Position numbers and translations under genes: made by a program
Part shown: positions 206 through 36,557 of the stretch, piece after piece
How positions within the stretch are numbered: position 1 is the stretch's first letter
Layout: every line of letters begins with the position of its first letter
Assembly: GCA_049472315.1 (NCBI GenBank)
Contig: JBLIRN010000014.1
Span: 5,820-69,819 of the forward strand
Source: a bacterium
Lineage (GTDB): Bacteria > SZUA-182 > DTGQ01 > JAFGSM01
Direction of reading: 5' to 3'
Length of the DNA: 64,000 bases
The notes under the pieces: generated by a model
What the model saw: the letters and a program-made list of their open reading frames with translations, nothing else
Databases searched by the model: none
Told to the model about the DNA's origin: nothing

Positions 206-970
206 CTACACCTCCTCTCCAAGGTAGGCGCCGATGACGAGCGGATCGTTCTGTATCTCCCGGGGGCTCCCCTCGGCGATCTTTTCGCCGTAATTGAGCA
301 CCATGATATGATCGGATATGTCCATCACCAGGCTCATGTCATGTTCTACCAGGAAGATGGTGATCCCGCGGTCCCTGATCCGTTGGATGAGCGCCGCCAC
401 CCTCTGCGTCTCGTGGGTGTTGAGCCCTGCGGCAGGTTCGTCCAGAAGGAGCAGTCGTGGCTCCGTAGCCAGGGCACGGGCAATCTCGAGGACCCGCTGC
501 TCTCCGAAGGGGAGGCTTCCTGCACCCTCCCCTGCATGCTGTTCCAGACCCACAAATGAGAGCATCTCCATGGCCTTCTCCCTGATGCCCCGTTCCTCCG
601 CGAACACCCATGGAAGGCGGAGGGCCGAGCTGATCATGGAGCACCGCGACCGGGTGTGACGGCCCACCATGATGTTTTCCAGGACGGTCATGTTTTCAAA
701 CAGGAGGACATTCTGAAAAGTCCGGGCGATTCCCATGGATACGAGCCGGTGCGGCCTTTTCCCGTCGATGCGGGTATTGTGGAAGCTTATCTTGCCGGCG
801 GTCAGGTGCGAAAATCCGGTGATGAGGTTGAAGATGGTGGTCTTTCCGGCGCCATTGGGACCGATCAGGGAGTGGATGCGGCCCTCGTATACATCCAGGG
901 TCACATTGTTCACGGCGATCAGACCGCCGAACTCCTTGCGTATGTTAAATGCCGACAGTATCGGATTCAT
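206..970 (-). CDS. livG: Branched-chain amino acid ABC transporter ATP-binding protein LivG
   Basis: 254 aa with Walker A GPNGAGKTT, an ABC signature region and the LLLDEPAAGLN Walker B. Typical LivG N-terminus MNPILSAFNIRKEFGGL. Confidence 0.9.
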   Translation of the reverse strand: MNPILSAFNIRKEFGGLIAVNNVTLDVYEGRIHSLIGPNGAGKTTIFNLITGFSHLTAGKISFHNTRIDGKRPHRLVSMGIARTFQNVLLFENMTVLENIMVGRHTRSRCSMISSALRLPWVFAEERGIREKAMEMLSFVGLEQHAGEGAGSLPFGEQRVLEIARALATEPRLLLLDEPAAGLNTHETQRVAALIQRIRDRGITIFLVEHDMSLVMDISDHIMVLNYGEKIAEGSPREIQNDPLVIGAYLGEEV

Positions 971-1922
971 TGTTTTCCTTGAGGATCTTTCCCTTTATCC
1001 ACGCGAATGCATCGATGGACCCCGAAAAGAGTCCCTTCGGCATCAGGATCATGATGATCATGAGGATGGTGCCGAATATGAGGATTTCGTAGTCGTGAAA
1101 CACGTGCAGATACTCGGGCAGAATGGTAAGGATGAAGGCCCCCAGACAGGCACCCCATATATCGGACATCCCGCCGATGACCGTCATGGTGACCAGCATG
1201 ACCGACTGCATGAAGCCGAATGAGCTTGGGCTGATGAAGGTCACGAAATGGGCATACAGGCTCCCTGCAATGGAGGCAAAGGCCGCGCTTAGTACAAAGA
1301 CCTGCACCTTGTAGCTCGACACATTGACCCCGGCTGCCTGGGCGGCATCCTCGCTGCCATGGATGGCGAGCAGGGCGCGCCCCACCCGGGAGTTGACGAG
1401 ATTCAGGGAGAGCAGGATGGCGGCAAGCACGATGGTCCAGGTGAAACAGTAAAAGCGCAGGTCCTTCAAAGGCATGCCGAAGAGCGAGAGCCGTGGGATG
1501 TCGGTCATGCCCGAAGGGCCGCCCGTCAAGGGGATAAGCTCGTTGAACACGATGAACATGATTTCGCCGAACCCCAGTGTGGCCATGGCCAGATAGTGCC
1601 CCTTCAGCTTCAGGGAGGGCACCCCGATTATGTAGGCAATGATCGCGGTAAGGACAACGCCGCACGGCAAGGCGAGCCATGGGTTGAACCCGAACCTGGT
1701 GCACAGCGCACCGGATGTATAGGCGCCGATGCCATAGAATGCCGCATGCCCCAGCGAGATCTGGCCCGCGTGTCCCATGAGCAGGCCCAGACCGATGACA
1801 ATGAGCACATTGACCCCCACCACAACCATTACGCTGATGTAATACTTGTTGCGCACCAGTATTGGAAAGAGGATGAGCCCGATGAGCACCAGGATGAATA
1901 TGATGGCGTTTCGCTTGTTCAT
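945..1922 (-). CDS. livM: Branched-chain amino acid ABC transporter permease LivM
   Basis: 325-aa polytopic membrane protein in the LivM/BPD_transp_2 family. It overlaps livG by 26 nt (operon). Confidence 0.85.
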   Translation of the reverse strand: MNKRNAIIFILVLIGLILFPILVRNKYYISVMVVVGVNVLIVIGLGLLMGHAGQISLGHAAFYGIGAYTSGALCTRFGFNPWLALPCGVVLTAIIAYIIGVPSLKLKGHYLAMATLGFGEIMFIVFNELIPLTGGPSGMTDIPRLSLFGMPLKDLRFYCFTWTIVLAAILLSLNLVNSRVGRALLAIHGSEDAAQAAGVNVSSYKVQVFVLSAAFASIAGSLYAHFVTFISPSSFGFMQSVMLVTMTVIGGMSDIWGACLGAFILTILPEYLHVFHDYEILIFGTILMIIMILMPKGLFSGSIDAFAWIKGKILKENNESDTVGI

Positions 1923-1923
1923 C

Positions 1924-2802
1924 CTACCGTAATTCCGATCTGCCCATGAGGCCGGTGGGTTTAAAAAAGAGCACCAGGAGGAGCACGATCAGGGCGATGG
2001 CATCCTTGTATCCGGAGGAGATGAATCCCGCACCCATCGATTCCATGATCCCTATGATGAAGCCTGCGATGACCGCCCCCGCGCCGCTTCCCAACCCTCC
2101 CAGGATGGCGGCGGCGAATCCCTTGATGGCGAGCATGGTGCCGCGCTGGTAGTCCATGAGCGAGATTGGGGTGATAATCACCCCTGCAACGGCGCCGATT
2201 GCGGCGCTCAGGGCAAAGGAGAACATCACCATATGCTTGACATTGATGCCCATGAGGCTCGCTGCCTTTCGGTTGGTGGCGCAGGCGCGCATGGCCTTGC
2301 CCAGGAGCGTTTTTTCGAAGAAGACCGCAAGGCCGAAGACCACGAACAGGGTGATCCCCAGAACCCACAGGGATTGGGGGATAATCACCGCGCCGCCCAC
2401 AATGATGGGGGTTTCGCCGGAGAAGGCGGGGATGATGAAGGTGTCCTTTCCCCAGATGAGCATGGCTAGTCCCTTGAACACGATGGAGGCTGCGATGGTG
2501 ATGATGATGAGGGTGATGATGGAGGGATTGGACAGGGGATTTATTGCCAGCCGCTCGAAAAGAATCCCGACAATACCCACAATCACGACCGTCAGAAAGA
2601 AGGCGGGGATCATGGGGATGGCGAGGCCCTTGGTGAGGGAGACCATCACCAGTCCCCCGATCATTACAAACTCGCCTTGGGCGAAATTGATGATGTCCGT
2701 TGCGTTGTAAATGATATTAAAACCCAGGCCGACCATCGCGAAGATGCTGCCGATGGTCAGCCCGGTGAAGATATACTGAAGTATCTGCGTAAAGATGAAC
2801 AA
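1924..2802 (-). CDS. livH: Branched-chain amino acid ABC transporter permease LivH
   Basis: 292-aa hydrophobic permease with LivH-like N-terminus MFIFTQILQYIFTGLTIGSIFAMVGLGFNIIY. Abuts the livM start. Confidence 0.85.
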   Translation of the reverse strand: MFIFTQILQYIFTGLTIGSIFAMVGLGFNIIYNATDIINFAQGEFVMIGGLVMVSLTKGLAIPMIPAFFLTVVIVGIVGILFERLAINPLSNPSIITLIIITIAASIVFKGLAMLIWGKDTFIIPAFSGETPIIVGGAVIIPQSLWVLGITLFVVFGLAVFFEKTLLGKAMRACATNRKAASLMGINVKHMVMFSFALSAAIGAVAGVIITPISLMDYQRGTMLAIKGFAAAILGGLGSGAGAVIAGFIIGIMESMGAGFISSGYKDAIALIVLLLVLFFKPTGLMGRSELR

Positions 2803-2815
2803 TTCAGCTAACTAC

Positions 2816-3979
2816 CTAATCAGCTAACACAAATTTGCCGTCCCTGACCGTAAGTACCTCGAAGGATTCCCTGGTGAGGCCGTTATGGTCGAGGGGTGAG
2901 AAGTTGAACAGACCGGCCGTGCCCACGAAGCCCTTCATGTTTTCCAGGTAGTCCCTGATCTTTGCACGGTTGGGTCCCACCGCCTTGAGGGCCTCGATCA
3001 CCATCCACATGCCGTCATAGGCGTGTCCTCCGAAGGTGCTCACCTCGCCGCCGAATTTCTTCTGGTACTCGGTTTTGTAATCCATGAGGACCTTCTTCTG
3101 GTAGTGGTAGTCAGGGAGCTGATCGGCAACCAGGAGCCTGCCGATGGGCGAAAGGACGCCTTCAGCCGCCCCGCCTGCCTGCTCGATGTTCTTGGTGTTG
3201 CCGAAGCCGTGACTCTGGAAAAGGGGTATCGTGATCCCGAGCTGTTTGACATTCTTGGTGACGATCACCTGGGTAGGGCCGATGGACCAGTTGACGATCG
3301 CCTGGGCGTCGGTCCCCTTGATCTTGGTGAGCTGAGCGGTCATATCGGTGTCCTTGTTGCTGTACCGCTCATCCGCCACGATGGTGATGCCCATTCGCTT
3401 TGCCGCCTCCAGGAGCTCGGTCCTGCCGCTGTCCCCGAACCCGTCCGATACCGTGATGATGGCCACCCTGGTGATCCCCTTTTTGAGCATATACTCGAAC
3501 ATGGCCTCCGCACAGAACTCGTCGGACTGGGGGGTCTTGAACACCCATTTACGCTCGGCAACCGGAGAGATGATCCTTTTTGAGGCGGCGCAGGAGATAT
3601 TGGGCACCTCCGCCTCCTGAACCACTGGAATGACGGCAAGGCTCGAGCCGCTCCGGGAGGGGCCGATGATGGCGAGCACCTGGTCCTTTTCGATGAGCTT
3701 CTTTGCGTTCAGGACCGACTTGGTCTCGTCCCCCTCGGTGTCATAGATGATCAATTCGATGGGATGGCCGTTGATCCCCCCTGCTGCGTTTACCTTGTCC
3801 GCGATCATCTGTGCGGTGTTCCGCTCCGGCTCCCCCAGCCATGAGGCAGGTCCGGTTACGGAAAAGATCGCACCGATCTTGTAGGGCTCCTTGGCCGCCT
3901 GACCGATCCTGCACAGACCGAAACAGAGAATGATCATACATACCGCAGCAAGCACCATTTTCCTCTTCACCACGCTCAC
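2816..3979 (-). CDS. Liv-type periplasmic solute-binding protein (paralog 1)
   Basis: 387 aa with a signal peptide and Peripla_BP_6/LivK-like motifs (YKIGAIFSVTGPASWLGEPERN, ITKVAIITVSDGFGDSG). Confidence 0.85.
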   Translation of the reverse strand: MSVVKRKMVLAAVCMIILCFGLCRIGQAAKEPYKIGAIFSVTGPASWLGEPERNTAQMIADKVNAAGGINGHPIELIIYDTEGDETKSVLNAKKLIEKDQVLAIIGPSRSGSSLAVIPVVQEAEVPNISCAASKRIISPVAERKWVFKTPQSDEFCAEAMFEYMLKKGITRVAIITVSDGFGDSGRTELLEAAKRMGITIVADERYSNKDTDMTAQLTKIKGTDAQAIVNWSIGPTQVIVTKNVKQLGITIPLFQSHGFGNTKNIEQAGGAAEGVLSPIGRLLVADQLPDYHYQKKVLMDYKTEYQKKFGGEVSTFGGHAYDGMWMVIEALKAVGPNRAKIRDYLENMKGFVGTAGLFNFSPLDHNGLTRESFEVLTVRDGKFVLAD

Positions 3980-7115: not shown

Positions 7116-7369
7116 GACCTTCCCTCCTTTGTAAATTTTAAGCCATTGAAATTCTTATTTTAATAACATTTTTTGCGCAACATGTCAAGATAGTCATGAA
7201 TGCTTGTTATCCTACCACATATTGAAATGATACAGAAGGTTGAATATACCGGTGAACATGGTATTGTCCGGTTTCTATTAACAACACCTCTGTTTTGTGA
7301 TACCATTCGTTGCGATGCGCCGAAGGTGGTGCGCACCCATCTGACAGGAGGGAAGATCGAGAAGGGGCT

Positions 7370-9574
7370 ATGGTGTCATCGACGATGAAGGATCATCGTG
7401 TAGCGATATCGAAGTGCTTAGGTGCGGCAGGCGTGCTCATCTCCACCGGGCTTCCTTCGGTGCTTCTGCGCAGGCCCCTCTTTCCCTCCCAGCTCAATCT
7501 GGTCGCATGGTCCGGCGTGATATTTTCCTTTCTCCTCCTGTGGCGGGATGGCACTATGGTACATAAGAAGCTGGCCTACTGGGCTGTTGCCAGCATCATA
7601 TGCATCCTTGCGATCGTTCGCAGCCGCGTGCTCCCTCCCGCCCACGTTACCCGATACGACATCCTGTTTATAATCGTCGCCCTTTCCCTGGTCTACCGGG
7701 GGACCATCCGGGATCTCGCCTTGTTTATGATATGCGTGCTCGCCCCCCTCGCCCTTGCCGAACTGTATGGGTTCATGCCCTCATTTACCGCCGAAATCCT
7801 CCTCATTGGCGTCGGCATCGGCATGGGGCTCCTGCTTCCCATGGTGCGGTCCCATTTCACATCAAAAGGGGGCGCCTGCGCAGCAGGCCTCGGCGTAGTG
7901 CTGGTCGGGCTCATCGGCGTTGTTTCCTATCTGATGGTATGCTTGCCAATAGGAAACCCCAAGAACAAGCGGGTCATATTCGACACCGGCCACGGGACCA
8001 CGGAGAGTCCTCTCATCGATTACACCAGGAGCATCGATACCGGCACCGAATTCGGTCATGCACACCTGGTGCGGTACCTTTCCATGCACGGTTTTCGCTG
8101 TGAGATGGCCGATTCCATTGCCGGAGATACCCTTTCCGGGGCAAGCATCCTGGTCCTCATCATGCCCTCCCTGCCCTATTCCCCGGAGGAGATTGAGTCG
8201 ATCCGTGCATTTGTGGCGGAGGGAGGGGGGCTGTTGGTGATCGGGGATCATACGGATATCAGCCATGTCCTCTCATCCCTCAATCCCGTTATCGAACAAT
8301 TCGGTATCCGGTTGCGCTTTGACACCATATGGCTTCAAAAGAACGACCGCATAAATCTCGACTACCGGCCCCATCCAGCAACCTTTGACCTGCCCATGGT
8401 CAACTTCAGCGTCGGCGCATCCCTGGACCTCACACCGCCCGGCCGTCCGGTCATCGTATCGCCGTTCGGCACCTTCTCCGATACGGGTGACCCGGAAAAC
8501 GCCGCCCACGCCTATCTCGGCAATTCCCTGCGTGATCCGGGCGAGAAAATGACCGACCTGTGCCTCATAGCCGATTGCCTCTACGGCAGGGGAAGGGTAT
8601 TCGTGATGGGTGATTCGGCCTATTTCCAGAATGCATCCCTTCACAGAAATGCCCTGTTCGCCTATCGGCTCTTTGACTGGTTGAACCACAGGAATGAGGA
8701 ACGAGGGGTGAGGATGATGTTTCTCATCGTGCTTTTCTGCCTGGTAGCGGCGCTCACCGTCCTGACGGGGTACGGGAGTGGATTCCATGGATCGCTGCTG
8801 CCTGCGGTCTCCCTGATTATCCTGTGCTCCCTGTGGATGGGAACCCTTCGAAACCTGAAGAGATTGTCCAGGCCGGAGCCTTTGTTTGCAACGATCTTCA
8901 TCGATATGACCCATCAGAATGAGTATTCCCTTTACTGGATCAACCGGGAAAAGGCGGATACAAGCCTGGACGGTTTCACCGGGCAAATCATAAGGTCGGG
9001 GATGTTCCCTGTCATAGATACCAAAGGCCCTATCACCTCGGAGACCCTCCGGGGGCATAGGGCGGTTTTCGTCATCTGCCCCAATGCCCCTTTCGATGAG
9101 GAGGAAATAGCGGCGATCGAGGAGTTCGTGGAGGAGGGGGGCGGCCTGCTCCTTGTGGAGGGACCGAGAAAATGGGCCATCAGCACCGCCCTGTGGGAGC
9201 GGTTCGGCCTGATCAAGCATCGGTATCCCTTGAGTGTGAACAGACCGATTCTTTCGCCCTTCGGCCTTCCCATACGCCTGCAGTATGGGAATTTCAGGGC
9301 GTCATTCATCCCCCATCCCATCACCCGGGGGATTACGCAGATCAACATGGTGAACCCCTGCGCCGTACAGGGGGGATTCCCGGTGGCATTTATCGACAAC
9401 GTTCCGGTGGTCAATTTTATGGAGTATGGCAAGGGACGGATTGTTGCCATCGGCGACGACCGGTTTTTTGCCAATTATATGACGGAATATCAGGAAAAGG
9501 TTATCGACCCGGAGAAACTCCGGCTTACCTGGAACCTCATCGACTATTGTGCATATGAAACGGTTCAGCACTAA
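7370..9574 (+). CDS. Polytopic membrane protein with two GldG/ABC_transp_aux (DUF4350)-like domains (MP1)
   Basis: RBS GAGAAGGGG precedes ATG 7370, though the long ORF opens at 7310. About 6 N-terminal TM helices are followed by two soluble domains with motifs EEIESIRAFVAEGGGLLVIGDHTD...VFVMGDSAYFQN and EEEIAAIEEFVEEGGGLLLVEG...IVAIGDDRFFANYM, separated by TM helices. Confidence 0.7.
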   Translation: MVSSTMKDHRVAISKCLGAAGVLISTGLPSVLLRRPLFPSQLNLVAWSGVIFSFLLLWRDGTMVHKKLAYWAVASIICILAIVRSRVLPPAHVTRYDILFIIVALSLVYRGTIRDLALFMICVLAPLALAELYGFMPSFTAEILLIGVGIGMGLLLPMVRSHFTSKGGACAAGLGVVLVGLIGVVSYLMVCLPIGNPKNKRVIFDTGHGTTESPLIDYTRSIDTGTEFGHAHLVRYLSMHGFRCEMADSIAGDTLSGASILVLIMPSLPYSPEEIESIRAFVAEGGGLLVIGDHTDISHVLSSLNPVIEQFGIRLRFDTIWLQKNDRINLDYRPHPATFDLPMVNFSVGASLDLTPPGRPVIVSPFGTFSDTGDPENAAHAYLGNSLRDPGEKMTDLCLIADCLYGRGRVFVMGDSAYFQNASLHRNALFAYRLFDWLNHRNEERGVRMMFLIVLFCLVAALTVLTGYGSGFHGSLLPAVSLIILCSLWMGTLRNLKRLSRPEPLFATIFIDMTHQNEYSLYWINREKADTSLDGFTGQIIRSGMFPVIDTKGPITSETLRGHRAVFVICPNAPFDEEEIAAIEEFVEEGGGLLLVEGPRKWAISTALWERFGLIKHRYPLSVNRPILSPFGLPIRLQYGNFRASFIPHPITRGITQINMVNPCAVQGGFPVAFIDNVPVVNFMEYGKGRIVAIGDDRFFANYMTEYQEKVIDPEKLRLTWNLIDYCAYETVQH

Positions 9575-12233
9575 GGGCATGGGTGATTTTATACGGTATT
9601 TTTCACGGGTGGCAGGGCTCTGGCTCGTGGTCGTCCTGTGGTGGGGCCTGATCGTTCTGGCCCCCTTGCAGATCCATAACGGGATCGTCATCCGCGACCT
9701 CCCCGCCATCGCAGGGGGGATCTATATACTCCTGCTCATGGGATTCTGGAAGAAATGGAGGATATCATTCCGTTCCATGAGGCAGGAGTGGCTTCTTCCC
9801 CTTCTGCTCATTGCAGCACTCGATGCGATTGCCATCCTGTATTTCCGCAGCATTACCTTTTCCTTCATCCTTACCTCACTATGTATCCTCTTGACCGGTC
9901 ATGTCTTGAATCTTGCGTCGTTTATCGATGCCGGATCCCTCCTCTTTCTTACCAGCGCGGGATTCGGAATCACCCACCTGATCATGCACCTCGTGCGCGG
10001 GATTCCCACCCTTGGATCCAGGTTTTTTGCCCGTCAGATCGCCTTCCTGCTCACCCTGTTTGGAAAGGACGCCCATGTGGTCATGGGTACCCTTTTTTTT
10101 CAAGGGAAAAAGATAACCTGCGACCTCATGAAGATGGGGTTTTTCCCGTGGCTGGCATTGAGCCTTGCCTTTCTCGCATTCATCGCCACGGCCCGGGGAA
10201 GCAGGAAAAAAAAGGCGTATGCCGCCGGAATCGGCATTGTCTTACATTATCTGTATCTGGTGGGAAGGGCCGCGCTGCTCTTTGTGTTCGTACCCGATCG
10301 CATGTATGCGGGCGCTGGAACGTTCAACCTCTTTTATTGGCGGATACTCGTTTTTTCATGTATCCCCCTGCTCCTTATATGGCTGTTCATCCTCTATGAG
10401 GCGGATCTGTCCGAGCCGGAAAAGGGTTTGTCCGGGCTGTTTTCTGCAAAGCCATCCCGGATGGACCCCCTGCTCTTCGCAGCGACTGTGATAACGGTGC
10501 TTTTCATGACCTTGTCATTTCTGTTCCACGGGTTTGCCAGACACCGGGACATCCACGTCATCATCGACGAGGTACACAGTGACTGGGAATCGAGCCTCAT
10601 CGATTTCAATCAAGACATCTTCGGCACCCTTGCGGAGAACAGCTACCACTCCCTACTGGACTACCTGAGGCACTTTTACCCGGCAACAATCCTGAGCAAT
10701 AAACCGGGCATGGCCCCCAATCTTGAGGGAGTCGAGTTGATCCATACCCCCATCCTCACCGGCGAGGTTCTGGACGGTGCCACGAGGATCCATCCGGAGC
10801 GGCACCCGGTGCTGGTCTTGAAATGCATCACCACGGCGTTTTCCCCCTATGAGATCGACATCATAAGGGATTTCGTCTCCCGCGGCGGAAGCGTACTGCT
10901 CATCGGCGACCACACGGATGTGTTTTTCATGAACAAGAATCTCAATGAGCTTGCAGGACACTTCGGCATACGGTTCGAGCAGAATTCCGTATATTTCATT
11001 GACGGGGGATGGGTCATCACGGATCCGCCGCACTACGAGTCGCATCCGGCAACCCACTTCCTGGGCCGGTTTATCTGGGCCACCGGGGATTCCGTGACCC
11101 TGAAATCGCCTGCGTTTCCCCTGATTACCAGCTCTCCGGTCTGTTTTGCCGATGAGGTCAATTACTTTTACGAAAATTTCTTCGGCAACACCACGATCGA
11201 TGCCGACGAGGTGTTCGGAAGCTACTGCGTCATGGCCGGATCACGGTATGGCAAGGGAAGGATCATTGCCTTTACCGATTCGACCTGCTTCAATAACTAC
11301 CTGATGTTCAGCGTGGGTCGAAGGCCGCTCATCGCGGGAATCTTCGGATGGCTGGGTGATACGGACTCGACGAATCCCTTTCCCCTGCTCACCTACCTCT
11401 CCTTTTGCGTGCTGGGGGTGATTATGCTGAAACGATGGCGAGGATTCGACTCGTTCCTGCGCACCTGCATCCTGGGCGTGATCCTGGGGTGGGGTGCAGG
11501 ATACCTTTTGGCTATGTCCATGAACGCCCTGCTCTACCCTCCCCCCGCACCCATACGTCCCTTGCCGCAGCAAGTGATCATGGATGCAAGCCATGACCCG
11601 CTCCATGCAATGAGTTACGGGAACAGCGAATCATTTCTTGCACCGACCAGTTACGACAGCCTCCTGTTCAATATCGGGAGGATAGACCTGTTCACGAGGA
11701 TACACTATGAAGGATCCCTTGGGAAGAGGGCGCTTGACGGATCGTCCTGCCTCATCATCGCCTCTCCGAGGGAGCAATTCTGCGCACGGGAGAGGGATGC
11801 AATACGATCGTATGTTCAGAACGGCGGATCGTTGCTCCTTATCGAGGGTGCGCATCACGATTCCACCGTCAATCAGATCGCGCATCTCTTCGACATGCAT
11901 GTGCGTCTCGACCCCTATCGCAACACGATCGATGCAATGAACCAGCGCCTGGCGAGGAACGGGCGTGATGCCCTTCGCACCAATCCCGCATGGGTGGATG
12001 GCGGCACCATGCTCTTCGGCTACGAGGGAATGCCTATTGTCATCTTCAAGCGAGAGGGCAAAGGAATGATTCTCGCCTTCGGCGACGACGGACTTTTCAT
12101 GAAGGAGAACTTTCAGGCATTCGGCCGGGAACTGGTTACCATGCAGTGCTTCATGGTCGAGGCGCTCGTGGGCAAGGACGAAGAGCTGCTGCGGTCCATC
12201 CGGTGGAATTATGTCGGCGACGGGGACCCTTGA
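9549..12233 (+). CDS. Polytopic membrane protein with two GldG/ABC_transp_aux (DUF4350)-like domains (MP2, tandem paralog)
   Basis: 894 aa with about 10 N-terminal TM helices. Domains carry motifs IDIIRDFVSRGGSVLLIGDHTD...IIAFTDSTCFNNYLMF and RDAIRSYVQNGGSLLLIEGAHHD...ILAFGDDGLFMKENF. Overlaps MP1 by 26 nt. Confidence 0.7.
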   Translation: MHMKRFSTKGMGDFIRYFSRVAGLWLVVVLWWGLIVLAPLQIHNGIVIRDLPAIAGGIYILLLMGFWKKWRISFRSMRQEWLLPLLLIAALDAIAILYFRSITFSFILTSLCILLTGHVLNLASFIDAGSLLFLTSAGFGITHLIMHLVRGIPTLGSRFFARQIAFLLTLFGKDAHVVMGTLFFQGKKITCDLMKMGFFPWLALSLAFLAFIATARGSRKKKAYAAGIGIVLHYLYLVGRAALLFVFVPDRMYAGAGTFNLFYWRILVFSCIPLLLIWLFILYEADLSEPEKGLSGLFSAKPSRMDPLLFAATVITVLFMTLSFLFHGFARHRDIHVIIDEVHSDWESSLIDFNQDIFGTLAENSYHSLLDYLRHFYPATILSNKPGMAPNLEGVELIHTPILTGEVLDGATRIHPERHPVLVLKCITTAFSPYEIDIIRDFVSRGGSVLLIGDHTDVFFMNKNLNELAGHFGIRFEQNSVYFIDGGWVITDPPHYESHPATHFLGRFIWATGDSVTLKSPAFPLITSSPVCFADEVNYFYENFFGNTTIDADEVFGSYCVMAGSRYGKGRIIAFTDSTCFNNYLMFSVGRRPLIAGIFGWLGDTDSTNPFPLLTYLSFCVLGVIMLKRWRGFDSFLRTCILGVILGWGAGYLLAMSMNALLYPPPAPIRPLPQQVIMDASHDPLHAMSYGNSESFLAPTSYDSLLFNIGRIDLFTRIHYEGSLGKRALDGSSCLIIASPREQFCARERDAIRSYVQNGGSLLLIEGAHHDSTVNQIAHLFDMHVRLDPYRNTIDAMNQRLARNGRDALRTNPAWVDGGTMLFGYEGMPIVIFKREGKGMILAFGDDGLFMKENFQAFGRELVTMQCFMVEALVGKDEELLRSIRWNYVGDGDP

Positions 12234-12447: not shown

Positions 12448-14283
12448 TCACCGCACCCAGAACCCGTACCCGTTGAGCAATGAGAGTGCATAGGCTAAGG
12501 GAAAAAGCTGATACGGGGAAATGGGAGATGACCACCGCGACTGCGATGCGTAGGGAGAAGCCGTTGAGGCTATGGAGGACTCAACCTGGTATCCCCCTGC
12601 ATTTGCCTGTGCATACCCCCAGCCTGAGAACGCCTGCTGCCCGATAGTGGAAAGGCCCTGCGCAGCAAACATCGGGGTCAATCCATAGGACGGCACAAAC
12701 GAATTAGCCCCTGCTACGGATGGATAGAACAATGACCTCCCGTTTGTGGCGAGGTATCCCTGGACGGTGGAGAACGACTGCTGAGAGACAGAGGGCTGAA
12801 ATGCCTGGATGCCCGCTTGCACGGCGGAGAGAAATCCTGCATTGCTTTGATATATTCGGTCTTCAGGGACATTCACGCCCACGGGAAGGGATGAGCCCTG
12901 ATAGACGGCTGAAGGCACGATTCGGGACGTGACCGGCTGGAACCCGGTCCGGGTGCCGAAGATGCTTGCCGTGGCATATGTGCCGGCAGCCTGCGTCGCT
13001 GCGAGGGGATTGACCAGCCCCCACCCGTACCATTGATCCCATCCCGGGTCGCCAAGGTCGCTTGCGGTGGTGCAGAGGATGTCCCGCACCTCTGACGGGG
13101 TAAGGGGCCGTGCCGAACGGGCAAGCATCAGCGCAGCCACACCGGACACGAATGCACAGGAGCATGAGGTGCCCTCGGCAAAATAGAAGTCGAAATCCTT
13201 GACATCGATCCCGGTATGGGTCTGCTGATAGATGCCGTCAGGATACCCATCGCCGTTCACGTCCTCGTCCAGGTCACCACCCGGTGCACAGATGTCCACA
13301 TCAGGCCCATAGTTGGAATAGGAATCGGCAAAGGAATGATCGAACCGGGTCGCGCTGACAGAGATGGCTGCGTCGTATGATGAGGGATAATGGGGCTCGC
13401 TGGTCGATTCGTTGCCCGCCGAGCATATAACCACCACTCCTTGGGATACCGCGAAATTGATCGCCTCCTCCTCGCTCGATGAGGGGCTGGTGACAAATCC
13501 GTAGCTCATGTTGATGACCCTGGCGCCGTTATTGACTGCAAAATATATGGCATCCACGATATCCGCCACCGTCCCCGAACCCGTATGGTCGAGCACCTTG
13601 ACCGGCATGAGAATGCACTCGGGGGCCACCCCGGCGCCCCCGATGAGATTGTTGGTACTCTGGGCGATGATGCCTGCGATATGCGTACCATGACGATTGT
13701 CGTCGTCAGGATAGGCATCGTCGTTCACGAAGTCGTATCCCGGCATGAAACTCGTCTCCGCCAGATCGGGGGCAAGGGCGAACCCGCCGCCGTTTCGATA
13801 GGCGACCCCGGTATCAAACACGGCAACCACCACGTTGGTTCCCAGGGATTGATCCCATGTCTGCTGGAGCATGGGATTATAGAGATGCCACTGAAGCTTG
13901 TACAGCGGATCATTGGGGATAAAATTCACCCTTCTCACATAGTTCGGCTCTGCCAAGGCTACCAGGGGATTCTGATTCAGATTTGCGGAAACGGCATACA
14001 CGTTGGAATTCGAAGGAACCCTCACCCTTCTCAACCCGCTGTAGGCACTGTATCCGACCTCGTTCAATCCCAGGTTGACATACGTGTTATTGATATCATT
14101 TGTGGATGCCTCGGAATGGTAACGAACCAGGACCTCCTGGGAGAAGTAGCCCTGGGTTTGCCTCCCTCCCCCCATTCCCCAGCCCCAGGAAGGAATCGAA
14201 GAAACATGGAAAAGAATGAAAAGACAACAAATCGTTATACAGCCTATCAACACACAAGCCCTGAACCGGCACCAGTACGCCAT
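12448..14283 (-). CDS. S8 family (subtilisin-like) serine peptidase with a C-terminal low-complexity Ser/Gln/Ala/Tyr-rich tail
   Basis: N-terminal signal peptide. Catalytic Asp (VAVFDTGV), His (HGTHIAGI) and Ser (GTSCSCAFVSGVAAL) motifs. The last roughly 200 aa are low-complexity and end GYGFWVR. Confidence 0.85.
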   Translation of the reverse strand: MAYWCRFRACVLIGCITICCLFILFHVSSIPSWGWGMGGGRQTQGYFSQEVLVRYHSEASTNDINNTYVNLGLNEVGYSAYSGLRRVRVPSNSNVYAVSANLNQNPLVALAEPNYVRRVNFIPNDPLYKLQWHLYNPMLQQTWDQSLGTNVVVAVFDTGVAYRNGGGFALAPDLAETSFMPGYDFVNDDAYPDDDNRHGTHIAGIIAQSTNNLIGGAGVAPECILMPVKVLDHTGSGTVADIVDAIYFAVNNGARVINMSYGFVTSPSSSEEEAINFAVSQGVVVICSAGNESTSEPHYPSSYDAAISVSATRFDHSFADSYSNYGPDVDICAPGGDLDEDVNGDGYPDGIYQQTHTGIDVKDFDFYFAEGTSCSCAFVSGVAALMLARSARPLTPSEVRDILCTTASDLGDPGWDQWYGWGLVNPLAATQAAGTYATASIFGTRTGFQPVTSRIVPSAVYQGSSLPVGVNVPEDRIYQSNAGFLSAVQAGIQAFQPSVSQQSFSTVQGYLATNGRSLFYPSVAGANSFVPSYGLTPMFAAQGLSTIGQQAFSGWGYAQANAGGYQVESSIASTASPYASQSRWSSPISPYQLFPLAYALSLLNGYGFWVR

Positions 14284-14547: not shown

Positions 14548-15921
14548 TTAGAATTGGTAACTCGCCCTGAAGACCAGTGCGGTTTCATGGAGAAACCGTG
14601 CCTCCGCCTGAAGGTGAAGGATATTCATGAACGGATAGCTGGCTCCCAGGAAAACACCCACGGGATTCGCCTCGCTGTAGTCATTCTCCAGGCGCGAGCC
14701 CACAAGGTCCAACTCGAAGGTGGCGTCAACCTGCGTAAAGGATAGTCCGCCATAGGGAACCAGTTTCGGGTATCCGAGATACCGTGCCGCGAGGGAGAGG
14801 TTCAGCTCCGTCCAATCAGCGGTGGCCTGTACCCCGTTTTGATATTCATCCTTGTTGGAGCCCATCAGGAAGGAGAGGCTGGCATCGAACAAAAGATCCC
14901 GTTCATCCCAACGATGGATCATCGCATTGACCCCGGCGCCATAGGCAAAACCGAGTACTCGTTTGAAATCGACACTGACGGCGCCGAAGTTGATGGTATC
15001 ATCGAACCCCAGGTCGGTCACACCCAGATCCAGAAAGAGGCGGAACCTCTCTCCGGGGGTATATCCCAGTCTGAATATGGCCCTCTTGTACTGAGAGCCT
15101 ATATCTACCGTTCCGCTCGGTATATCCATCTCCACGTCGCGGGCAAGTCCGGCCGCGGCGTCCAGTTCCAGGGAGAGTTTCTCCTTGATCCCTTTTCCCG
15201 CCACTGTAGGCCGCTCGGGCGCGGGTGCGGGGGTAACCTTCACCAGGCGTTCCATGTTTTCTCTGGCCATGGGGTAATCGGGTCTCACGGCCAGGGCCTT
15301 TTTGTACATGGCCACTGCGGTATCGACATCCCCTGTCTCCTCCGCCAGGTATCCGAGATTATTGTAGGCCTCGGCCATTGTCTGGTCCAATTCCAGGGCC
15401 CTCAGGTATTCCTTCCTGGCCTCCTCCATACGGGACAGCTTCATGAGACTGAGTCCCATGTTGAAATGTACGGCGGCATCATCGATGCCGTGGCGCATGG
15501 CCAGCCTGTATTCCTGAAGCGCCTTGTCCGGCTGGCCGGATCGGTCGTAGACGACCCCCAGGTTGAAATGCGCCTCTCCGAAGTCGGGTTTCAGTTGAAT
15601 CGCCTTTACATACGCATTCACGGCCTCCTGGTACATTCCCAACTCATACGAGGCCAATCCCAGATTATAATGGGCTTGCGGAGAATCGGGATCAGCGGTC
15701 ACGTTGGCCTTGAACTCATTCAGCGCCCCCTTGAAATCACCGGCCAGAAAGAGACGCTCCCCTTTATTCATCCGCTCCGTATCGGTTTTCTGGACATCCG
15801 ATGACCCCTTTTCGCCGAATGGACGTTTGAGTAATGACGAGGTCTTCTGCATCATTCCGCCGCAACCGAGCACGAATCCCAGACAGATAACGATAAAACC
15901 CTTCGCAAGCCGGTTCATCAT
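14548..15921 (-). CDS. TPR-repeat lipoprotein with C-terminal outer-membrane beta-barrel-like domain
   Basis: Lipobox LGC, at least 5 TPR repeats (AHYNLGLASYELGMYQEAVNAYVKAIQLKP and others), and a C-terminal roughly 200 aa of alternating amphipathic strands ending in Phe (ASYQF). Confidence 0.7.
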   Translation of the reverse strand: MMNRLAKGFIVICLGFVLGCGGMMQKTSSLLKRPFGEKGSSDVQKTDTERMNKGERLFLAGDFKGALNEFKANVTADPDSPQAHYNLGLASYELGMYQEAVNAYVKAIQLKPDFGEAHFNLGVVYDRSGQPDKALQEYRLAMRHGIDDAAVHFNMGLSLMKLSRMEEARKEYLRALELDQTMAEAYNNLGYLAEETGDVDTAVAMYKKALAVRPDYPMARENMERLVKVTPAPAPERPTVAGKGIKEKLSLELDAAAGLARDVEMDIPSGTVDIGSQYKRAIFRLGYTPGERFRLFLDLGVTDLGFDDTINFGAVSVDFKRVLGFAYGAGVNAMIHRWDERDLLFDASLSFLMGSNKDEYQNGVQATADWTELNLSLAARYLGYPKLVPYGGLSFTQVDATFELDLVGSRLENDYSEANPVGVFLGASYPFMNILHLQAEARFLHETALVFRASYQF

Positions 15922-16404: not shown

Positions 16405-17520
16405 ATGAGCAGGTACAAGATTGCAGCCATATTCATACTCGTCGTCATCATGTCCCTTTTTTCAGTCCGGGTCTTTGCGGCAATTGACCCAGGCGGCTTT
16501 TACTATGACAAGGAAGTGACCCTGTTCAACGGGGGCACCGCCAGGCTTTACTTCCCCCAGGCAACCGGCGACCACGGGGAGGGCAACCATCACCTCATGT
16601 CGAACCCGAACGATCCCGGTTCGCTGTTTGACGAATTCTTTGCCAATGCCCAATCCGGCAAGTTTTTCCTCATGTACGACGGGAACGATGTGGTGGATGA
16701 CGAGATATTGATGATCGCCCTGGGTGAGCAATTTGACAACTATTTCTTTATGGCCCTTCAATGGCAAATAAACGACGGGCCCTTGTCCCAGAATATCTCC
16801 ATCGAGAGCGCCGATTTCAACAGCAATGAATACGGCTACTATCCACAATGGTGGAAGGTGGCCCGATCGGGAAAGCCACTCATTTACAGTGGATCGGACG
16901 AAGACGCCTACTACGTCATCTACGTCCCGCTCGAATTTGACGGCCAGTCAATGGCAAAGGGGGATGTCCTGTCAATCACCTACGCACTCACCCAATTTGA
17001 TGCCCCTCAGGCCAGGATTGTCTTCAATGTTTACGGCTCAAGCGATACAGAGTATTTTTACCAGTGGACCAACGCAAACGACAACACCTTCGGAATAAAC
17101 TCCCTCTATTCCTCGTCTCAACAGAACCAGCCCTCGATTTACCCGTATCTTTTCGGCGGGATGGGCTACGGCGGATACTATGGGGGATACTGGCCGGGGA
17201 TGGGTTCGTTTGGGGGATCATACGGAGGATGGGGCTTCTCCTCTCCTACGGGTTCCTACTACGGGTATGGATACGGCATCCCATATTCCTTCTATGGCTC
17301 CTCCTTTGGCGGCGGGTATGGGTATTCACCCTATGGAGGCGGTTTCGGCGGCTTATACGGGGGGTTTGGCTATCCTTACAGCAACTTCTATTCCGGCTGG
17401 TCCTACCGGCCGTACTCGTTCGGATACGGGAGTGGTTACGGATGGTCACCCTATACCATGGGATGGGGTTCCTTGGGTGGATATTATTCGAATTACTACG
17501 GCGGGTACAGCGGTTTCTGA
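16405..17520 (+). CDS. Secreted protein with extreme Gly/Tyr/Ser-rich low-complexity C-terminal region
   Basis: Signal peptide MSRYKIAAIFILVVIMSLFSVRVFA and RBS GGAAGGAG upstream. The C-terminal roughly 130 aa is almost entirely G/Y/S/F/W/P (GYGGYYGGYWPGMGSFGGSYGGWGF...GGYSGF). The N-terminal roughly 240-aa domain has no match I recognise. Confidence 0.7.
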   Translation: MSRYKIAAIFILVVIMSLFSVRVFAAIDPGGFYYDKEVTLFNGGTARLYFPQATGDHGEGNHHLMSNPNDPGSLFDEFFANAQSGKFFLMYDGNDVVDDEILMIALGEQFDNYFFMALQWQINDGPLSQNISIESADFNSNEYGYYPQWWKVARSGKPLIYSGSDEDAYYVIYVPLEFDGQSMAKGDVLSITYALTQFDAPQARIVFNVYGSSDTEYFYQWTNANDNTFGINSLYSSSQQNQPSIYPYLFGGMGYGGYYGGYWPGMGSFGGSYGGWGFSSPTGSYYGYGYGIPYSFYGSSFGGGYGYSPYGGGFGGLYGGFGYPYSNFYSGWSYRPYSFGYGSGYGWSPYTMGWGSLGGYYSNYYGGYSGF

Positions 17521-18091: not shown

Positions 18092-19213
18092 TCATCCGGA
18101 GGCATGAACCACGCTGCGGCCGGCCGGCTTCAGTACCTCGTAGCATTTGACCGGCTCGGTTTTATTCTTTGCAATGATCTCCCCCTTTTTCTGCAAAGGG
18201 AAGAGATCCTTTACCTGCCGGTATGTTTGTTCGCCGATCACGATTTCCCCTCCCTTTGCCATCTGCTCAAATCGCGCAGCAACGTTCACACAGTCGCCGA
18301 TGACCGTATAGTCGATCCTATTGACCGATCCCACATTTCCGGCGATGGCGATCCCGGTGTTGATGCCGATTCCGATCTCAAATGTCTCCTTTTGTTCCTT
18401 TGTGCGCTCCTTCATCAATCGCTCCGTGGCCTCCTGCATTTCTATGGCGGCCTGTATGGCATCGGCGGCCGGCGCATTCTCCGAGGGGATAAATCCAAAC
18501 AAGGCCATGAGGTTGTCCCCGATGAATTTATCCAGCACCCCGTTATTCTTGAAGATGATATCCACCATGTCGCTGAAGAACTGATTCAACATGGCCACCA
18601 CCTCCTCGGCGTCCATCCGCTCGGTAATGGTGGTAAAGGATCGTATGTCGGCAAAGAGAATGGTCACCTCTTTGCGTTCATTTTCAAAGAGCGCACCGCT
18701 TTCCGGATTCATGAGCTTTTCAACGAGATCTTCCCGCACGTACCTGCTCAAGGTAGTGCGCAGTTCCACCTCCTTTTGGTTGAGCTCAAACGCCTCGGTA
18801 AGGTCCTTGGCGTAGGTCATGAGTTGTATGCCCTGCTCCTTCAAATTCTTCAAAAGGACATTGAAATTCTGCGCGATGTCGTTCAATTCCTCGTCCGCCT
18901 TGATCTTGATCGATTCGACCTTTTCCCAGGATCGAATAATTCCTGTGGCCTTGGCAAGCTGAGCAAGCTGTTCCGCCGATCTCCTCAGGAGCACAAATCC
19001 AAGGAGGATTGAGAAGGCCGCAAGTGCCAGGAAGATGATGGTGATATCGAAGGTTTTTATATTTTTTTGGAAAAGGAGATAGATGATCAGCACAAAGGGA
19101 ATGATACCCATCAGGGCGAAGATGATCCGTGACTTGACATGAAAGCTTCTGAAATTAAGATAGCATGATCCGCACAGGTGACTCAGAATCGCTGTCAATT
19201 TGTTTTGATTCAT
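18092..19213 (-). CDS. Membrane-anchored class III adenylate/guanylate cyclase
   Basis: 2 N-terminal TM helices, a coiled/HAMP-like linker, and a CYCc domain (VTILFADIRSFTTITE, KFIGDNLMALFG, IGINTGIAIAGNVGS). Confidence 0.8.
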   Translation of the reverse strand: MNQNKLTAILSHLCGSCYLNFRSFHVKSRIIFALMGIIPFVLIIYLLFQKNIKTFDITIIFLALAAFSILLGFVLLRRSAEQLAQLAKATGIIRSWEKVESIKIKADEELNDIAQNFNVLLKNLKEQGIQLMTYAKDLTEAFELNQKEVELRTTLSRYVREDLVEKLMNPESGALFENERKEVTILFADIRSFTTITERMDAEEVVAMLNQFFSDMVDIIFKNNGVLDKFIGDNLMALFGFIPSENAPAADAIQAAIEMQEATERLMKERTKEQKETFEIGIGINTGIAIAGNVGSVNRIDYTVIGDCVNVAARFEQMAKGGEIVIGEQTYRQVKDLFPLQKKGEIIAKNKTEPVKCYEVLKPAGRSVVHASG

Positions 19214-20219: not shown

Positions 20220-22427
20220 TCACGGTGATTTCACGGCAAGTTCGACGCCCTTCTGCATGCCAGGTCTTCTCCGCTGCACTATCTTTGTTTTCTTATCGGT
20301 ATCTCGGCCGGTTTTTTTCTCCTCTAGTACCTTCAAGAGGGCATTCACCACCTGCGCATCGAACTGAGTGCCCGACCCCTCCTTGATGATCTGGAGGGTG
20401 CGCTCCTTTCCCATTCCCTCCCGATAGGGCCTGTCCGAGATAAGGGCATCGTATACATCCGCCACGGACAGGATACGCGCCCCAAGGCAGATGTCTTCGC
20501 CGGAAATACCGTGGGGATATCCCTTCCCGTCAAACCTTTCATGGTGCTGCAATCCCATGGGGATGATGTCTTTATAGGCAGCGATGGGTTCCAGGATGCG
20601 GGCGCCGGTCGCCGGATGCTGCTTTATGATGGCGAATTCCTCGTCCGTGAGCCTTCCCGGCTTGTCGAGGATCTCAGCAGGGACCCCGATCTTGCCGATG
20701 TCATGGAGCAACCCTCCCCGATGGAGGTCCTCAAGTTCCTTTTCACTGAGGCCCATGACCTTCCCCAGCTTCAATGCCATTTCCGTGACCCGCTCCGAGT
20801 GGCCGGCGGTCCAGGGGGACTTTGCATCAACCGTGCGGGCAAGGGCCTTCAAAGCGCCCCAGTTCAGATTATCCAGCTCCTCGATGAGGTGGGCGTTGGA
20901 CAGGGCGACCGCCACCTGGTCAGCAAGCTGCCTGACCTGGAGGAGATCCTCATCACTGGGCTCATGGACCTCGAAGGTGCCGAGTGCGATAGTCCCTGCC
21001 ATCCTTTGACTGATAAACAGAGGGAGCAGTATCGCCGATTCGACCCCTCTGTTTTTAAAGGATTCGAGCAAACCGGGTAACTCCTCCTTTGTTTTCAGCG
21101 TGAGCGTCTCTCGATGCTCCGCAAGCATCTCCAGGTCGTCCCGCTGTATCTCCACATCCTCGCAAGCGCGATTCGAGGCCCCGTGGCCGGTGTACACACG
21201 GGCCATGCAGCAGCCCTTGGATTGAAGGTCGAACAAGAGGACACTCACCAGATCATAGTTGCATACCTTGTGCATGGTGGAGATGACCGTGCCGATGATC
21301 TCTTCCGTGTCCAGGGAGGACAGGATGGCGCGGTCGATATCGGCCATGGTGGTCAGGGCGTTGAACTGCCTGCCGAGTTGCCGTGCCATGAAGTTGAAGG
21401 ATGATCCGAGTTCCTCGAATTCATCCTTGCTCGTTACCGTGACCCTGGTCTCGAAATCCTTCATGGCAATGCGTCTGGTCCCCTCCTTGAGCTTCTCGAG
21501 CGGGGTCATGGTCTTGCGTATCTGTATCACGCTCAGCAGCACGACCACCAGGAGGGAAAGCAGGATAAAGAGGGGAAATATCTTCTTGAAATAGGCAAGC
21601 GGGGCGAAGACGTCATCCTTGGCGGTGCTGGTGATGATCGTCCACTTCGGCTCAAAGAATTCATATTTCAGAAAGATCGGCCAAAAACACCCCAGAAACT
21701 CCCTTCCTTTGTAATCCCATTCGAACTGCTCCGAAAAGTACCGGCTCGCCTTTGCAGCCAGTGTCTTGCGAAACGAGGGGGACACCGGATGGGAGGAAAA
21801 GATCACGTTCTCAGACTCGTCCATGACACACAGCTCGGTGAGCCCGGGCAGCGAATCGGACTCTAAAAGGCCCCAGAGGTACATGGAGTCGACTTCCGCA
21901 TGGATGAGCCCCTTTGCAGGATCCTCGGGGTCAACAGGACTGATCATGAACACGCACAATTTGTCCTTGTTCCCATTCTCATACTCGGTTACTATAAGCG
22001 CCTTACCGGAGCGCAGATGTTCACGCTGTGCATCGGACAGCCGGATTGGTGCATGTTGATCACCGAACACCGGGATCAGTGCGCCGGCATGGGTCTGCAG
22101 CGCCAGCGTGATGAACCGCCCCTTCAACCCCTCGATTCCTGCATGTGATGGAAGCGGGGTGGATGATCCGCGTATCTCATTCATGCCCGAGGAGAGGACG
22201 TTCAACTGGGTTTCAAGAAACAGGAGACGTTCCATTACGGACATGCCGATGGATTTACTCGATCTGCGCAGCCTCAACCGGCTTTGCGACTCAAGCTGCT
22301 TCGATACCTGGGTGAATGAGATGACGGAGATCGCTACGAGCGGGATCAGTGCGCAGAGTATAAACAATGCGAATATCCGGCGTGCAACCTTGCTCTTCAG
22401 GAATGTCTCGTCGATTCGTATCCCCAT
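20220..22427 (-). CDS. HD-GYP domain c-di-GMP phosphodiesterase with N-terminal membrane/periplasmic sensor, HAMP and GAF-like regions
   Basis: HD motif (GLLHDIGKIGVP), GYP motif (HHERFDGKGYPHG). An N-terminal TM helix, periplasmic region and a second TM are present. Confidence 0.85.
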   Translation of the reverse strand: MGIRIDETFLKSKVARRIFALFILCALIPLVAISVISFTQVSKQLESQSRLRLRRSSKSIGMSVMERLLFLETQLNVLSSGMNEIRGSSTPLPSHAGIEGLKGRFITLALQTHAGALIPVFGDQHAPIRLSDAQREHLRSGKALIVTEYENGNKDKLCVFMISPVDPEDPAKGLIHAEVDSMYLWGLLESDSLPGLTELCVMDESENVIFSSHPVSPSFRKTLAAKASRYFSEQFEWDYKGREFLGCFWPIFLKYEFFEPKWTIITSTAKDDVFAPLAYFKKIFPLFILLSLLVVVLLSVIQIRKTMTPLEKLKEGTRRIAMKDFETRVTVTSKDEFEELGSSFNFMARQLGRQFNALTTMADIDRAILSSLDTEEIIGTVISTMHKVCNYDLVSVLLFDLQSKGCCMARVYTGHGASNRACEDVEIQRDDLEMLAEHRETLTLKTKEELPGLLESFKNRGVESAILLPLFISQRMAGTIALGTFEVHEPSDEDLLQVRQLADQVAVALSNAHLIEELDNLNWGALKALARTVDAKSPWTAGHSERVTEMALKLGKVMGLSEKELEDLHRGGLLHDIGKIGVPAEILDKPGRLTDEEFAIIKQHPATGARILEPIAAYKDIIPMGLQHHERFDGKGYPHGISGEDICLGARILSVADVYDALISDRPYREGMGKERTLQIIKEGSGTQFDAQVVNALLKVLEEKKTGRDTDKKTKIVQRRRPGMQKGVELAVKSP

Positions 22428-32403: not shown

Positions 32404-32619
32404 CACTCATCATTGTTGATATTTGACGTATCTTCGATCATAATAGGGTATGTAGTTCCTATAGAGTAAGTTATTTAATTACTTAACAATATATGTTACT
32501 ATGTAATCATTCAATATTCTCAATGCGGCGCCGCTCGCTGCGCGTATTGAATCGATGTGAGCGGATGGAGGTCCCGCCGCCGGGTCTATAGAGCAGAGGG
32601 CAAAAAAGGAGCCATTTTC

Positions 32620-34509: not shown

Positions 34510-34518
34510 AACAATGCG

Positions 34519-36553: not shown

Positions 36554-36557
36554 AACA

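Follow-up and report, generated by a model that had tools for sequence, protein, structure and literature searches.

Here, we report a pair of adjoining plus-strand genes, between positions 7370 and 12233 of a 64-kb stretch of bacterial DNA (the window, i.e. the whole stretch of 64,000 nucleotides that was analysed), which encode two large membrane proteins, each carrying two soluble domains of the GIFT type. Domains of this type occur in bacterial gliding (GldG), eukaryotic intraflagellar transport (IFT52) and N-glycosylation (OST48). Judged from sequence comparison, the two genes form an ancient, order-conserved module of distinct paralogs in Archaea and Bacteria, which is probably an uncharacterised two-subunit membrane module with a putative active or binding site in the first soluble domain (D1). 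The two genes of the window are called gene 1 and gene 2, and family members that resemble their products are called P1-type and P2-type, respectively.

Both proteins match the Pfam families of this fold above the gathering scores. DUF4350 (PF14258; gathering score 30.4) matches gene 1 with 87.3 bits (2e-24) and gene 2 with 37.2 bits (5e-9), and ABC_transp_aux (PF09822; gathering score 34.7) matches them with 55.0 bits (1e-14) and 43.3 bits (3e-11), respectively; IFT52_GIFT (PF23355) is matched above 27.2 bits by gene 1 (3e-13) and gene 2 (2e-13). Each protein has two matching stretches, which gives four GIFT/DUF4350-like soluble domains, D1 and D2 of each chain. In the PDB, a profile built from gene 1 orthologs matches IFT52 at an E-value of 2.5e-12, and Foldseek finds IFT52 at 1e-9, together with OST48, a site-1-protease domain, GH42 and ThuA-like proteins. 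The GldG/ABC_transp_aux/DUF4350 (GIFT) fold, similar to that of class I glutamine amidotransferases, had been proposed for the soluble domains in an earlier note on this DNA, and both the Pfam scores and the fold search bear it out. The same note had credited all four domains with a common set of motifs, which holds in part: the alignment shows E-x-x-I-x-x-F-V-x-x-G-G-x-L-L and a distal D-[SD]-x-x-F-x-N in all four, whereas G-D-H-T-D is confined to D1 of each protein, the D2 counterparts reading EGPRKW (gene 1) and EGAHHD (gene 2). The two proteins can be aligned with each other over D1, the hairpin and D2 only (26% identity, E 3e-41), and their N-terminal membrane domains give no alignment. 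Database entries of family proteins are labelled 'hypothetical', 'DUF4350 domain-containing' or 'Gldg family'.

Homology searches place orthologs of gene 1 (identity 90–27%) and of gene 2 on shared contigs. In a scan of one genome per GTDB species, which gave 38 loci, every open reading frame (ORF) of each locus was scored with profiles of both proteins; the lineages comprise unclassified bacterial metagenome-assembled genomes (MAGs), Bacteroidota, Firmicutes, Planctomycetota, Verrucomicrobiota, Bipolaricaulota, Thermotogota and many Thermoplasmatota archaea. The same P1–P2 arrangement is present in three further lineages, including a complete Phycisphaerales chromosome, and wherever the contig sequence suffices in the 41 loci with family members, the order is P1-type, then P2-type. 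The P1-type gene lies 5' of the P2-type gene in the 34 distinct loci that hold both (Thermoplasmatota, Planctomycetota, Verrucomicrobiota, Bipolaricaulota, Bacteroidota and Firmicutes), and each paired gene scores far higher with the profile of its own type than with the other. A 4-nt stop/start overlap (ATGA/GTGA) joins the genes in 21 of these 34 loci, archaeal as well as bacterial; such an overlap usually signals translational coupling and would suit subunits made in equimolar amounts. The earlier statement that the whole gene is duplicated therefore gives way to that of an ancient pair, with unalignable membrane domains and an order fixed across phyla.

Genes are interposed between the P1-type and P2-type genes in three loci. 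In a Bacteroidota MAG (L014, 11815–18210), seven plus-strand genes lie between the pair; their products include PD40 beta-propeller proteins and an OMP_b-brl_2 barrel, and several match no family. In a second Bacteroidota MAG (L019, 11839–14698), a homologous PD40 protein is encoded directly downstream. In a Firmicutes MAG (L012, 9896–13372), 3.5 kb with minus-strand ORFs, one of 495 residues, separates the pair, which may reflect a mobile-element insertion.

Hydropathy and AlphaFold models concur in a common plan for the two proteins, in which a polytopic N-terminal membrane domain is followed by a soluble domain, a transmembrane hairpin and a second soluble domain; this is the unusual architecture that had been claimed for them. 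The model of full gene 1 has a predicted local distance difference test score (pLDDT) of 87 and a predicted template modelling score (pTM) of 0.88, and the pLDDT for the gene 2 N-terminus is 75.5. The hairpin linker brings the chain back across the membrane, so that D1 and D2 share one side of it. The side was estimated from a crude count of Lys and Arg residues in the loops. In gene 2, the loops rich in these residues (KKWRISFRSMRQE, ARGSRKKKAY and the hairpin loop KRWRGFDSFLR) alternate so as to place the N-terminus inside and D1 and D2 outside; the N-terminal domain is accordingly predicted to begin inside and to end outside, with an extracytoplasmic loop between helices 5 and 6. Across the family, strongly biased members mostly put the large domains outside, DUF4350 proteins described in the literature are also predicted to be extracellular, and D1 and D2 of both proteins are likely to face the outer side of the membrane. 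The P1-type membrane domain of the window clade is short, with about 190 residues (7370–7960 in the window) versus 300–330 in Thermoplasmatota and other lineages (P1-type genes of L015–L032), and the window clade seems to have lost part of it.

Conservation in D1 and D2 was assessed in a sample of 28 P1-type and 35 P2-type proteins. Three elements are conserved in D1: D/E-x-x-H after strand 1 (mostly kept), G-D-H-T-[DN] after strand 4 and G/T-D-[ST] after a late strand. In P1-type proteins, H294 and D415 are found in all 28, and D293 and T295 in 27 each; in P2-type proteins, W336, H445 and D567 are found in all 35, T446 in 34 and D444 in 33. The strand-4 loop of D2 is variable across both protein types. 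In the gene 1 model, the conserved D1 residues come after strands 201–205, 287–291 and 408–413, and the model puts them at the C-terminal edge of the parallel sheet, at which a GIFT-type fold binds ligands or catalyses. The nucleophile of class I amidotransferases sits at this edge as well. No Cys-His-Glu triad was found, the segment after strand 4 being free of Cys in D1 and D2 alike (its position was taken from the model secondary structure, with no superposition); because this triad is missing, the soluble domains are not class I glutamine amidotransferases. The conservation suggests that each subunit probably has one putative ligand-binding or catalytic site, in D1, and that D2, having lost the strand-4 motif, is probably a structural copy.

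We tentatively propose that the pair is a stand-alone heterodimeric membrane complex that binds or processes an extracytoplasmic surface glycoconjugate, a reading which we hold to be possible at somewhat less than even weight, with higher confidence in its structural and evolutionary parts and lower confidence in the ligand. The products of gene 1 and gene 2 would be two distinct subunits of one complex in the cytoplasmic membrane, each anchored by its own polytopic domain and two-helix hairpin. The hairpin would set both GIFT domains of a chain on the same side, most likely the outer one, where D1 of each subunit would present its Asp/His cluster as a candidate site and D2 would probably be structural. 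Outside the cytoplasm, the complex would bind or modify a polymer or a glycoconjugate, for which a surface glycan, a lipid-linked sugar and a surface protein are candidates; no ATP-binding cassette (ABC) ATPase would be needed, and the family-specific membrane domains would form the part of the site that faces the membrane. Genes near the pair give weak hints that it acts at the surface; they encode GT4 glycosyltransferases and GH130 (L044), a beta-helix/Disaggr_assoc protein (L042), a CLIPPER repeat protein (L043), PD40 and outer-membrane proteins (OMPs; L014) and, in the window, an S8 peptidase and an OMP.

The nearest functional analogy is OST48/WBP1 of the eukaryotic oligosaccharyltransferase, in which a GIFT domain stands on the non-cytoplasmic face beside polytopic subunits. 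Nevertheless, OST48 has a single GIFT domain and a single helix and takes no catalytic part in its multi-subunit enzyme, catalysis being left to the GT-C protein STT3, whereas in the pair the GIFT domains share a chain with a polytopic domain and nothing GT-C-like was found. The N-terminal GIFT domain of IFT52 differs further: it is a eukaryotic domain for protein interactions in the cytoplasm, lacks any membrane part and is only 15–24% identical to the pair.

Several points weigh against the proposed complex. The Lys/Arg count of gene 1 in the window (16 versus 11) runs in the wrong direction and is ambiguous, and several other members behave likewise. The spatial clustering of the invariant D1 residues is deduced from the secondary structure of the model alone. 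The ligand class is a guess by analogy, drawn from OST48, GldG and GH42-type domains, because the pair has no conserved partner and its relatives are distant; in IFT52, the same fold serves protein–protein contacts only. Finally, the module is carried by archaea that lack a wall or have an S-layer and by both monoderms and diderms, among which no one envelope polymer could be the shared substrate.

A simpler form of the idea is that the complex is a membrane-anchored extracytoplasmic hydrolase or transferase, which uses the Asp/His site of D1 and needs the membrane domains for anchoring and dimerisation only. We regard this as unlikely, if still worth keeping in mind. A plain anchor would not need 7–9 conserved helices, a nearly invariant Arg and a conserved loop. 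Moreover, the closest structural relatives (IFT52, OST48 and the GH42 middle domain) are non-catalytic, and there is no Cys-His-Glu triad.

The membrane domains themselves set the pair apart. Neither matches any Pfam or NCBIfam family, ABC-2 permease models included, or any solved structure, and the resemblance to ABC-2 permeases such as GldF that had been suggested for them fails on both counts, as neither ABC2_membrane-type profiles nor solved permeases match. Among solved structures, the polytopic domain has no GT-C-like match. When 1.84 billion representatives (clusters at 50% identity) were searched with a profile of the gene 2-type domain, 772 proteins scored E <= 1e-3, of which 580 reached E <= 1e-10; within the best 150, the 99 that have at least 700 residues are all P2-type. 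Because its best profile matches are P2-type, the domain is family-specific. A word-index homology search with the membrane-domain alignment gave 2 matches. When the P1-type and P2-type membrane domains were compared by hhalign, the probability was 2% with mixed alignments, and pairings of subgroups gave 88.6% in one case and 11.5% in another. The conserved features of the gene 2-type domain are a three-stranded sheet between helices 5 and 6, the segment GKKITCDLMKMG and a nearly invariant R230. The Cys of the motif is kept in the window clade only; elsewhere it is mostly Thr (GATWE, TLEK), and also Val or Tyr.

These features recall the exosortases, in which a helix, an extracytoplasmic beta-hairpin and a Cys segment are followed by a later Arg in a membrane helix. 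The gene 2-type membrane domain could thus be a diverged exosortase or archaeosortase, in which case the module would sort or process surface proteins and the GIFT domains would hold the substrate or acceptor. The possible likeness lies in the beta-hairpin, the conserved Cys segment (ITCDLMKMG) and the nearly invariant Arg about 49 residues further on in a membrane helix, and one sequence (P0080) matches the exo_archaeo model TIGR04178 over profile positions 13–93 of 97 (E 0.018, 15.3 bits). However, this match stays under the 23-bit cut-off and is the only one in a scan of some 69 sequences; TIGR04178 has no match in 56 distant members, in the consensus sequences of six subgroups or in the window protein itself. 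The Cys is not conserved in the family, P0080 itself having Tyr in its place, and the best matches of the membrane-domain profile, which finds 772 representatives in all, show no sign of the exosortase superfamily. The adjacent secreted proteins have no obvious PEP-CTERM-like tail. A search of the family loci for an exosortase-like ORF (CSG motif) gave none usable for comparison, and no fusion of an exosortase with a GIFT domain is known to us. We consider an exosortase origin improbable.

The genomic neighbourhood bears on whether the pair serves an ABC transporter. The window has no ABC-2 ATPase or permease; its ABC genes are those of a Liv-type amino-acid importer on the other strand (206–3979), and only two ORFs in the 64 kb carry a Walker-A motif (G..G.GK[ST]), a LivG-type ABC ATPase and an SMC_N/AAA-domain ATPase. 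In a survey of 95 flanking genes from 20 diverse loci, in which Pfam families were counted, each family occurred in at most four genes and no recurrent partner was seen; ABC_tran occurred in two, both ECF-type and from one locus (L002). All-against-all clustering of ORFs over all loci found that shared genes are limited to lineage-level synteny. Three further contexts (L042, L043 and L044) hold no ABC transporter except an unrelated, divergent Mla transporter on the other strand in L042, and the neighbours of the pair in Thermoplasmatota are housekeeping genes. Because no neighbour recurs across lineages, the pair has no ABC-2 partner; the absence of a nearby ABC ATPase or permease, as noted earlier, is upheld in the window and in the flanking genes, and the possibility that orthologs always stand beside an ABC transporter is contradicted by the survey. 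In L002, the pair lies between two opposite-strand ECF-type ABC ATPase genes, at 8946–9806 (-) and 14931–15806 (-), whose products are nearest to ECF_ATPase_2 and ECF_ATPase_1, both under the equivalog cut-offs; here the pair looks inserted into ecfA1–ecfA2.

An ABC-2 exporter of the GldA/GldF type could nonetheless be encoded elsewhere, with the two proteins acting in trans as its GldG-like accessory subunits. PF09822 scores above its cut-off in both proteins, 41 of 56 distant family members have weak matches to the GldG equivalog TIGR03521 (best E 7e-7, far under the cut-off), and one source labels a relative 'Gldg family protein'. The pair also resembles GldG of the GldAFG gliding-motility ABC transporter in its GIFT/flavodoxin-like soluble domain, its membrane anchor and the presumed placement of the soluble domain outside the cytoplasm. 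Nevertheless, there are clear differences. The first is the score, as gene 1 and gene 2 reach only 10.4 and 10.0 bits with TIGR03521 against a cut-off of 389.85. The second is the architecture: the soluble part of GldG is one large region flanked by a single helix at either terminus, whereas the pair has two GIFT domains per chain split by a hairpin, 7–9 N-terminal helices that match neither ABC2_membrane models nor solved ABC-2 permeases, and an obligate paralogous partner. The third is the G-D-H-T-[DN] motif, which is a hallmark of the family of the pair. The last is the context, since ABC-2 genes accompany the pair in none of the lineages examined, the 64-kb window included; the two flanking ABC_tran genes are ECF-type and on the other strand, and the Mla-type transporter near L042 is unrelated and divergent. 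We therefore think a role in trans quite doubtful.

Membership in the DUF4350 systems associated with MoxR ATPases and vWA proteins is very unlikely. The DUF4350 proteins of arCOG01314 (TON_1832, PAB1295) are predicted to be extracellular, with a signal peptide and one C-terminal helix, and in archaea and some bacteria the DUF4350 family has been associated with genes for MoxR (COG0714) and vWA proteins (PMC5898192); such arCOG01314-type systems are predicted secretion or membrane-remodelling complexes. The pair shares with them the Pfam DUF4350 domain, a predicted extracytoplasmic location and an occurrence in archaea and bacteria, but it has neither the signal-peptide/single-helix architecture nor MoxR/vWA neighbours, these being absent from the 25 commonest families of the 95 flanking genes and from the annotated contexts. 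A recent local tandem duplication with no special meaning, which adjoining genes of one architecture might have suggested, is refuted to the point of being hardly conceivable by the low identity and unalignable N-terminal domains, by the far greater closeness of each gene to orthologs in other phyla or archaea than to its neighbour, and by the fixed P1–P2 order. A search of the literature on DUF4350 and on GldG/GIFT found no study of the architecture of the pair.

The coordinates of the gene pair and of its parts are collected in Table 1.

Table 1. Features of the two-gene module in the window; residue numbers of gene 2 refer to the 884-residue form unless stated otherwise.
Feature	Position	Strand	Basis
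Weak sigma-70-like promoter match, TTAACA-17-TACCAT with extended TG, 9/12 matches	7278..7306	+	Scan of the 254-bp gap
Gene 1 (P1-type subunit), 734 residues	7370..9574	+	ORF; Pfam; AlphaFold; orthologs
Gene 1 N-terminal membrane domain, residues 1–197, about 7 helices	7370..7960	+	Hydropathy; AlphaFold model
Gene 1 GIFT domain D1, residues 198–443; DxxH after strand 1, GDHTD at 8243–8257, GDSAYFQN	7961..8698	+	Pfam DUF4350 stretch 228–434; four-domain alignment
Gene 1 two-helix membrane hairpin, residues 444–498	8699..8863	+	Hydropathy peaks 444–472 and 470–494; model helices 445–467 and 476–498
Gene 1 GIFT domain D2, residues 499–734; degenerate strand-4 loop EGPRKW	8864..9571	+	Second Pfam stretch; weak ThuA match 551–655; four-domain alignment
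Gene 2 (P2-type subunit), start ATG 9555 or ATG 9579	9555..12233	+	ORF; junction sequence; Pfam; orthologs
Gene 2 N-terminal membrane domain, residues 1–316, 9 helices	9579..10526	+	Hydropathy; model
Gene 2 three-strand sheet and conserved motif ...GTLFFQGKKITCDLMKMG, loop between helices 5 and 6	10074..10139	+	Model strands 166–168, 171–174 and 177–180
Gene 2 Arg230, nearly invariant, in the helix after next from that loop	10266..10268	+	Invariant in A2 and A3, at least 90% in A5
Gene 2 GIFT domain D1, residues 317–596; DEvHSdWE, GDHTD at 10905–10919, TDSTCFNN	10527..11366	+	Pfam stretches; alignment
Gene 2 two-helix membrane hairpin, residues about 597–653; loop KRWRGFDSFLR rich in positive charges	11367..11537	+	Hydropathy; sequence
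Gene 2 GIFT domain D2, residues 654–884; loop EGAHHD, unconserved in the family	11538..12230	+	IFT52_GIFT stretch 723–772 (894-residue form)

The two genes correspond to adjoining same-strand ORFs at 7310/7370–9574 and 9549–12233. The start of gene 1 is most plausibly ATG 7370, which gives 734 residues, whereas an upstream TTG would give 754. For gene 2, the options are GTG 9549 (894 residues), ATG 9555 (892 residues) and ATG 9579 (884 residues). The NCBI model of the identical protein (P0068) has 884 residues with 100% identity over all 884, which corresponds to ATG 9579, 4 nt past the stop of gene 1, and the N-terminus of an ortholog that is 81% identical to gene 2 (P0069; MKRF...) fits ATG 9555. 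Because two starts of gene 2 are thus supported, the junction is either a 20-nt overlap or a 4-nt gap, and under either the two genes form a single operon. In the earlier description, two adjacent genes of 754 and 894 residues overlapped by 26 nt; the adjacency holds, but the length of 754 counts from the TTG, while ATG 7370, cited in that description itself, gives 734, and an overlap of 26 nt presupposes GTG 9549 in place of the NCBI start at 9579 or of 9555 (20 nt). On the 5' side, a 254-bp gap separates the pair from a PaaK-like ligase gene of divergent transcription, and on the 3' side a 214-bp gap precedes a convergent S8 peptidase gene. Promoter and terminator scans at the gene pair gave nothing above background; the 254-bp gap has 8 promoter-like matches on both strands versus about 3.7 expected, and the match before gene 1 is suggestive only.

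The neighbouring S8 peptidase, TPR/OMP lipoprotein and Gly/Tyr-rich secreted protein had been thought to be functionally linked to the pair. One of the ortholog contexts shows synteny with the window that takes in the S8 peptidase, the TPR/OMP protein and the 370-residue protein, and the others are unrelated; the synteny is limited to the closest MAGs, and Peptidase_S8 occurs in two of the 95 flanking genes. The ORF clustering and the flank survey thus point to lineage-specific synteny, and a family-wide link to these proteins was rejected. The S8 subtilase itself, at 12448–14283 (-), has a fervidolysin-like prodomain and, past the catalytic domain, a low-complexity tail of about 180 residues (Ser, Ala, Gln, Gly and Tyr). 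A protein of 371 residues, at 16405–17520 (+), has a hydrophobic, signal-peptide-like N-terminus and no Pfam match, and its last 130 residues or so are nearly all Gly, Tyr, Ser and Phe (GYGYG-like); it is kept beside the TPR/OMP gene in the closest MAG only.

Further along the window, a region dense in signalling genes, at 18092–19213 (-), 20220–22427 (-) and 32557–38309 (+), encodes a HAMP-GAF-HD protein, an adenylate/guanylate cyclase and three histidine kinases with PAS domains, of which two also have receiver domains. At the far end are two PilY1-beta-propeller proteins, one of 1522 residues with BACON_2 at 44282–48850 (+) and one of 1085 residues with VWA at 51658–54915 (+), and a secretin with AMIN and STN domains at 59225–61288 (+). 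Together, the PilY1-type proteins and the secretin look like a type IV pilus-like cluster.

We know of no biochemical activity described for any GIFT domain. The family reported here is a version of the GIFT domain with an invariant Asp/His site and a fused membrane domain, free of ABC genes and kept as a two-gene unit across the archaeal–bacterial divide. It makes the function of GIFT domains directly testable, as there are four residues to mutate in a compact system. It also corrects the database reading of these proteins as 'Gldg family' or 'ABC-type transport auxiliary', which their genomic contexts do not back. A bolder view, unlikely in our estimate, is that the pair is the core of a hitherto undescribed, ATP-independent archaeal–bacterial membrane machine: a heterodimer whose family-specific, possibly exosortase-like membrane domains would pass a substrate embedded in the membrane to GIFT domains that act as catalysts on the outer face. 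If true, this would be the first enzymatic role of the GIFT fold and a new class of cell-surface biogenesis system.

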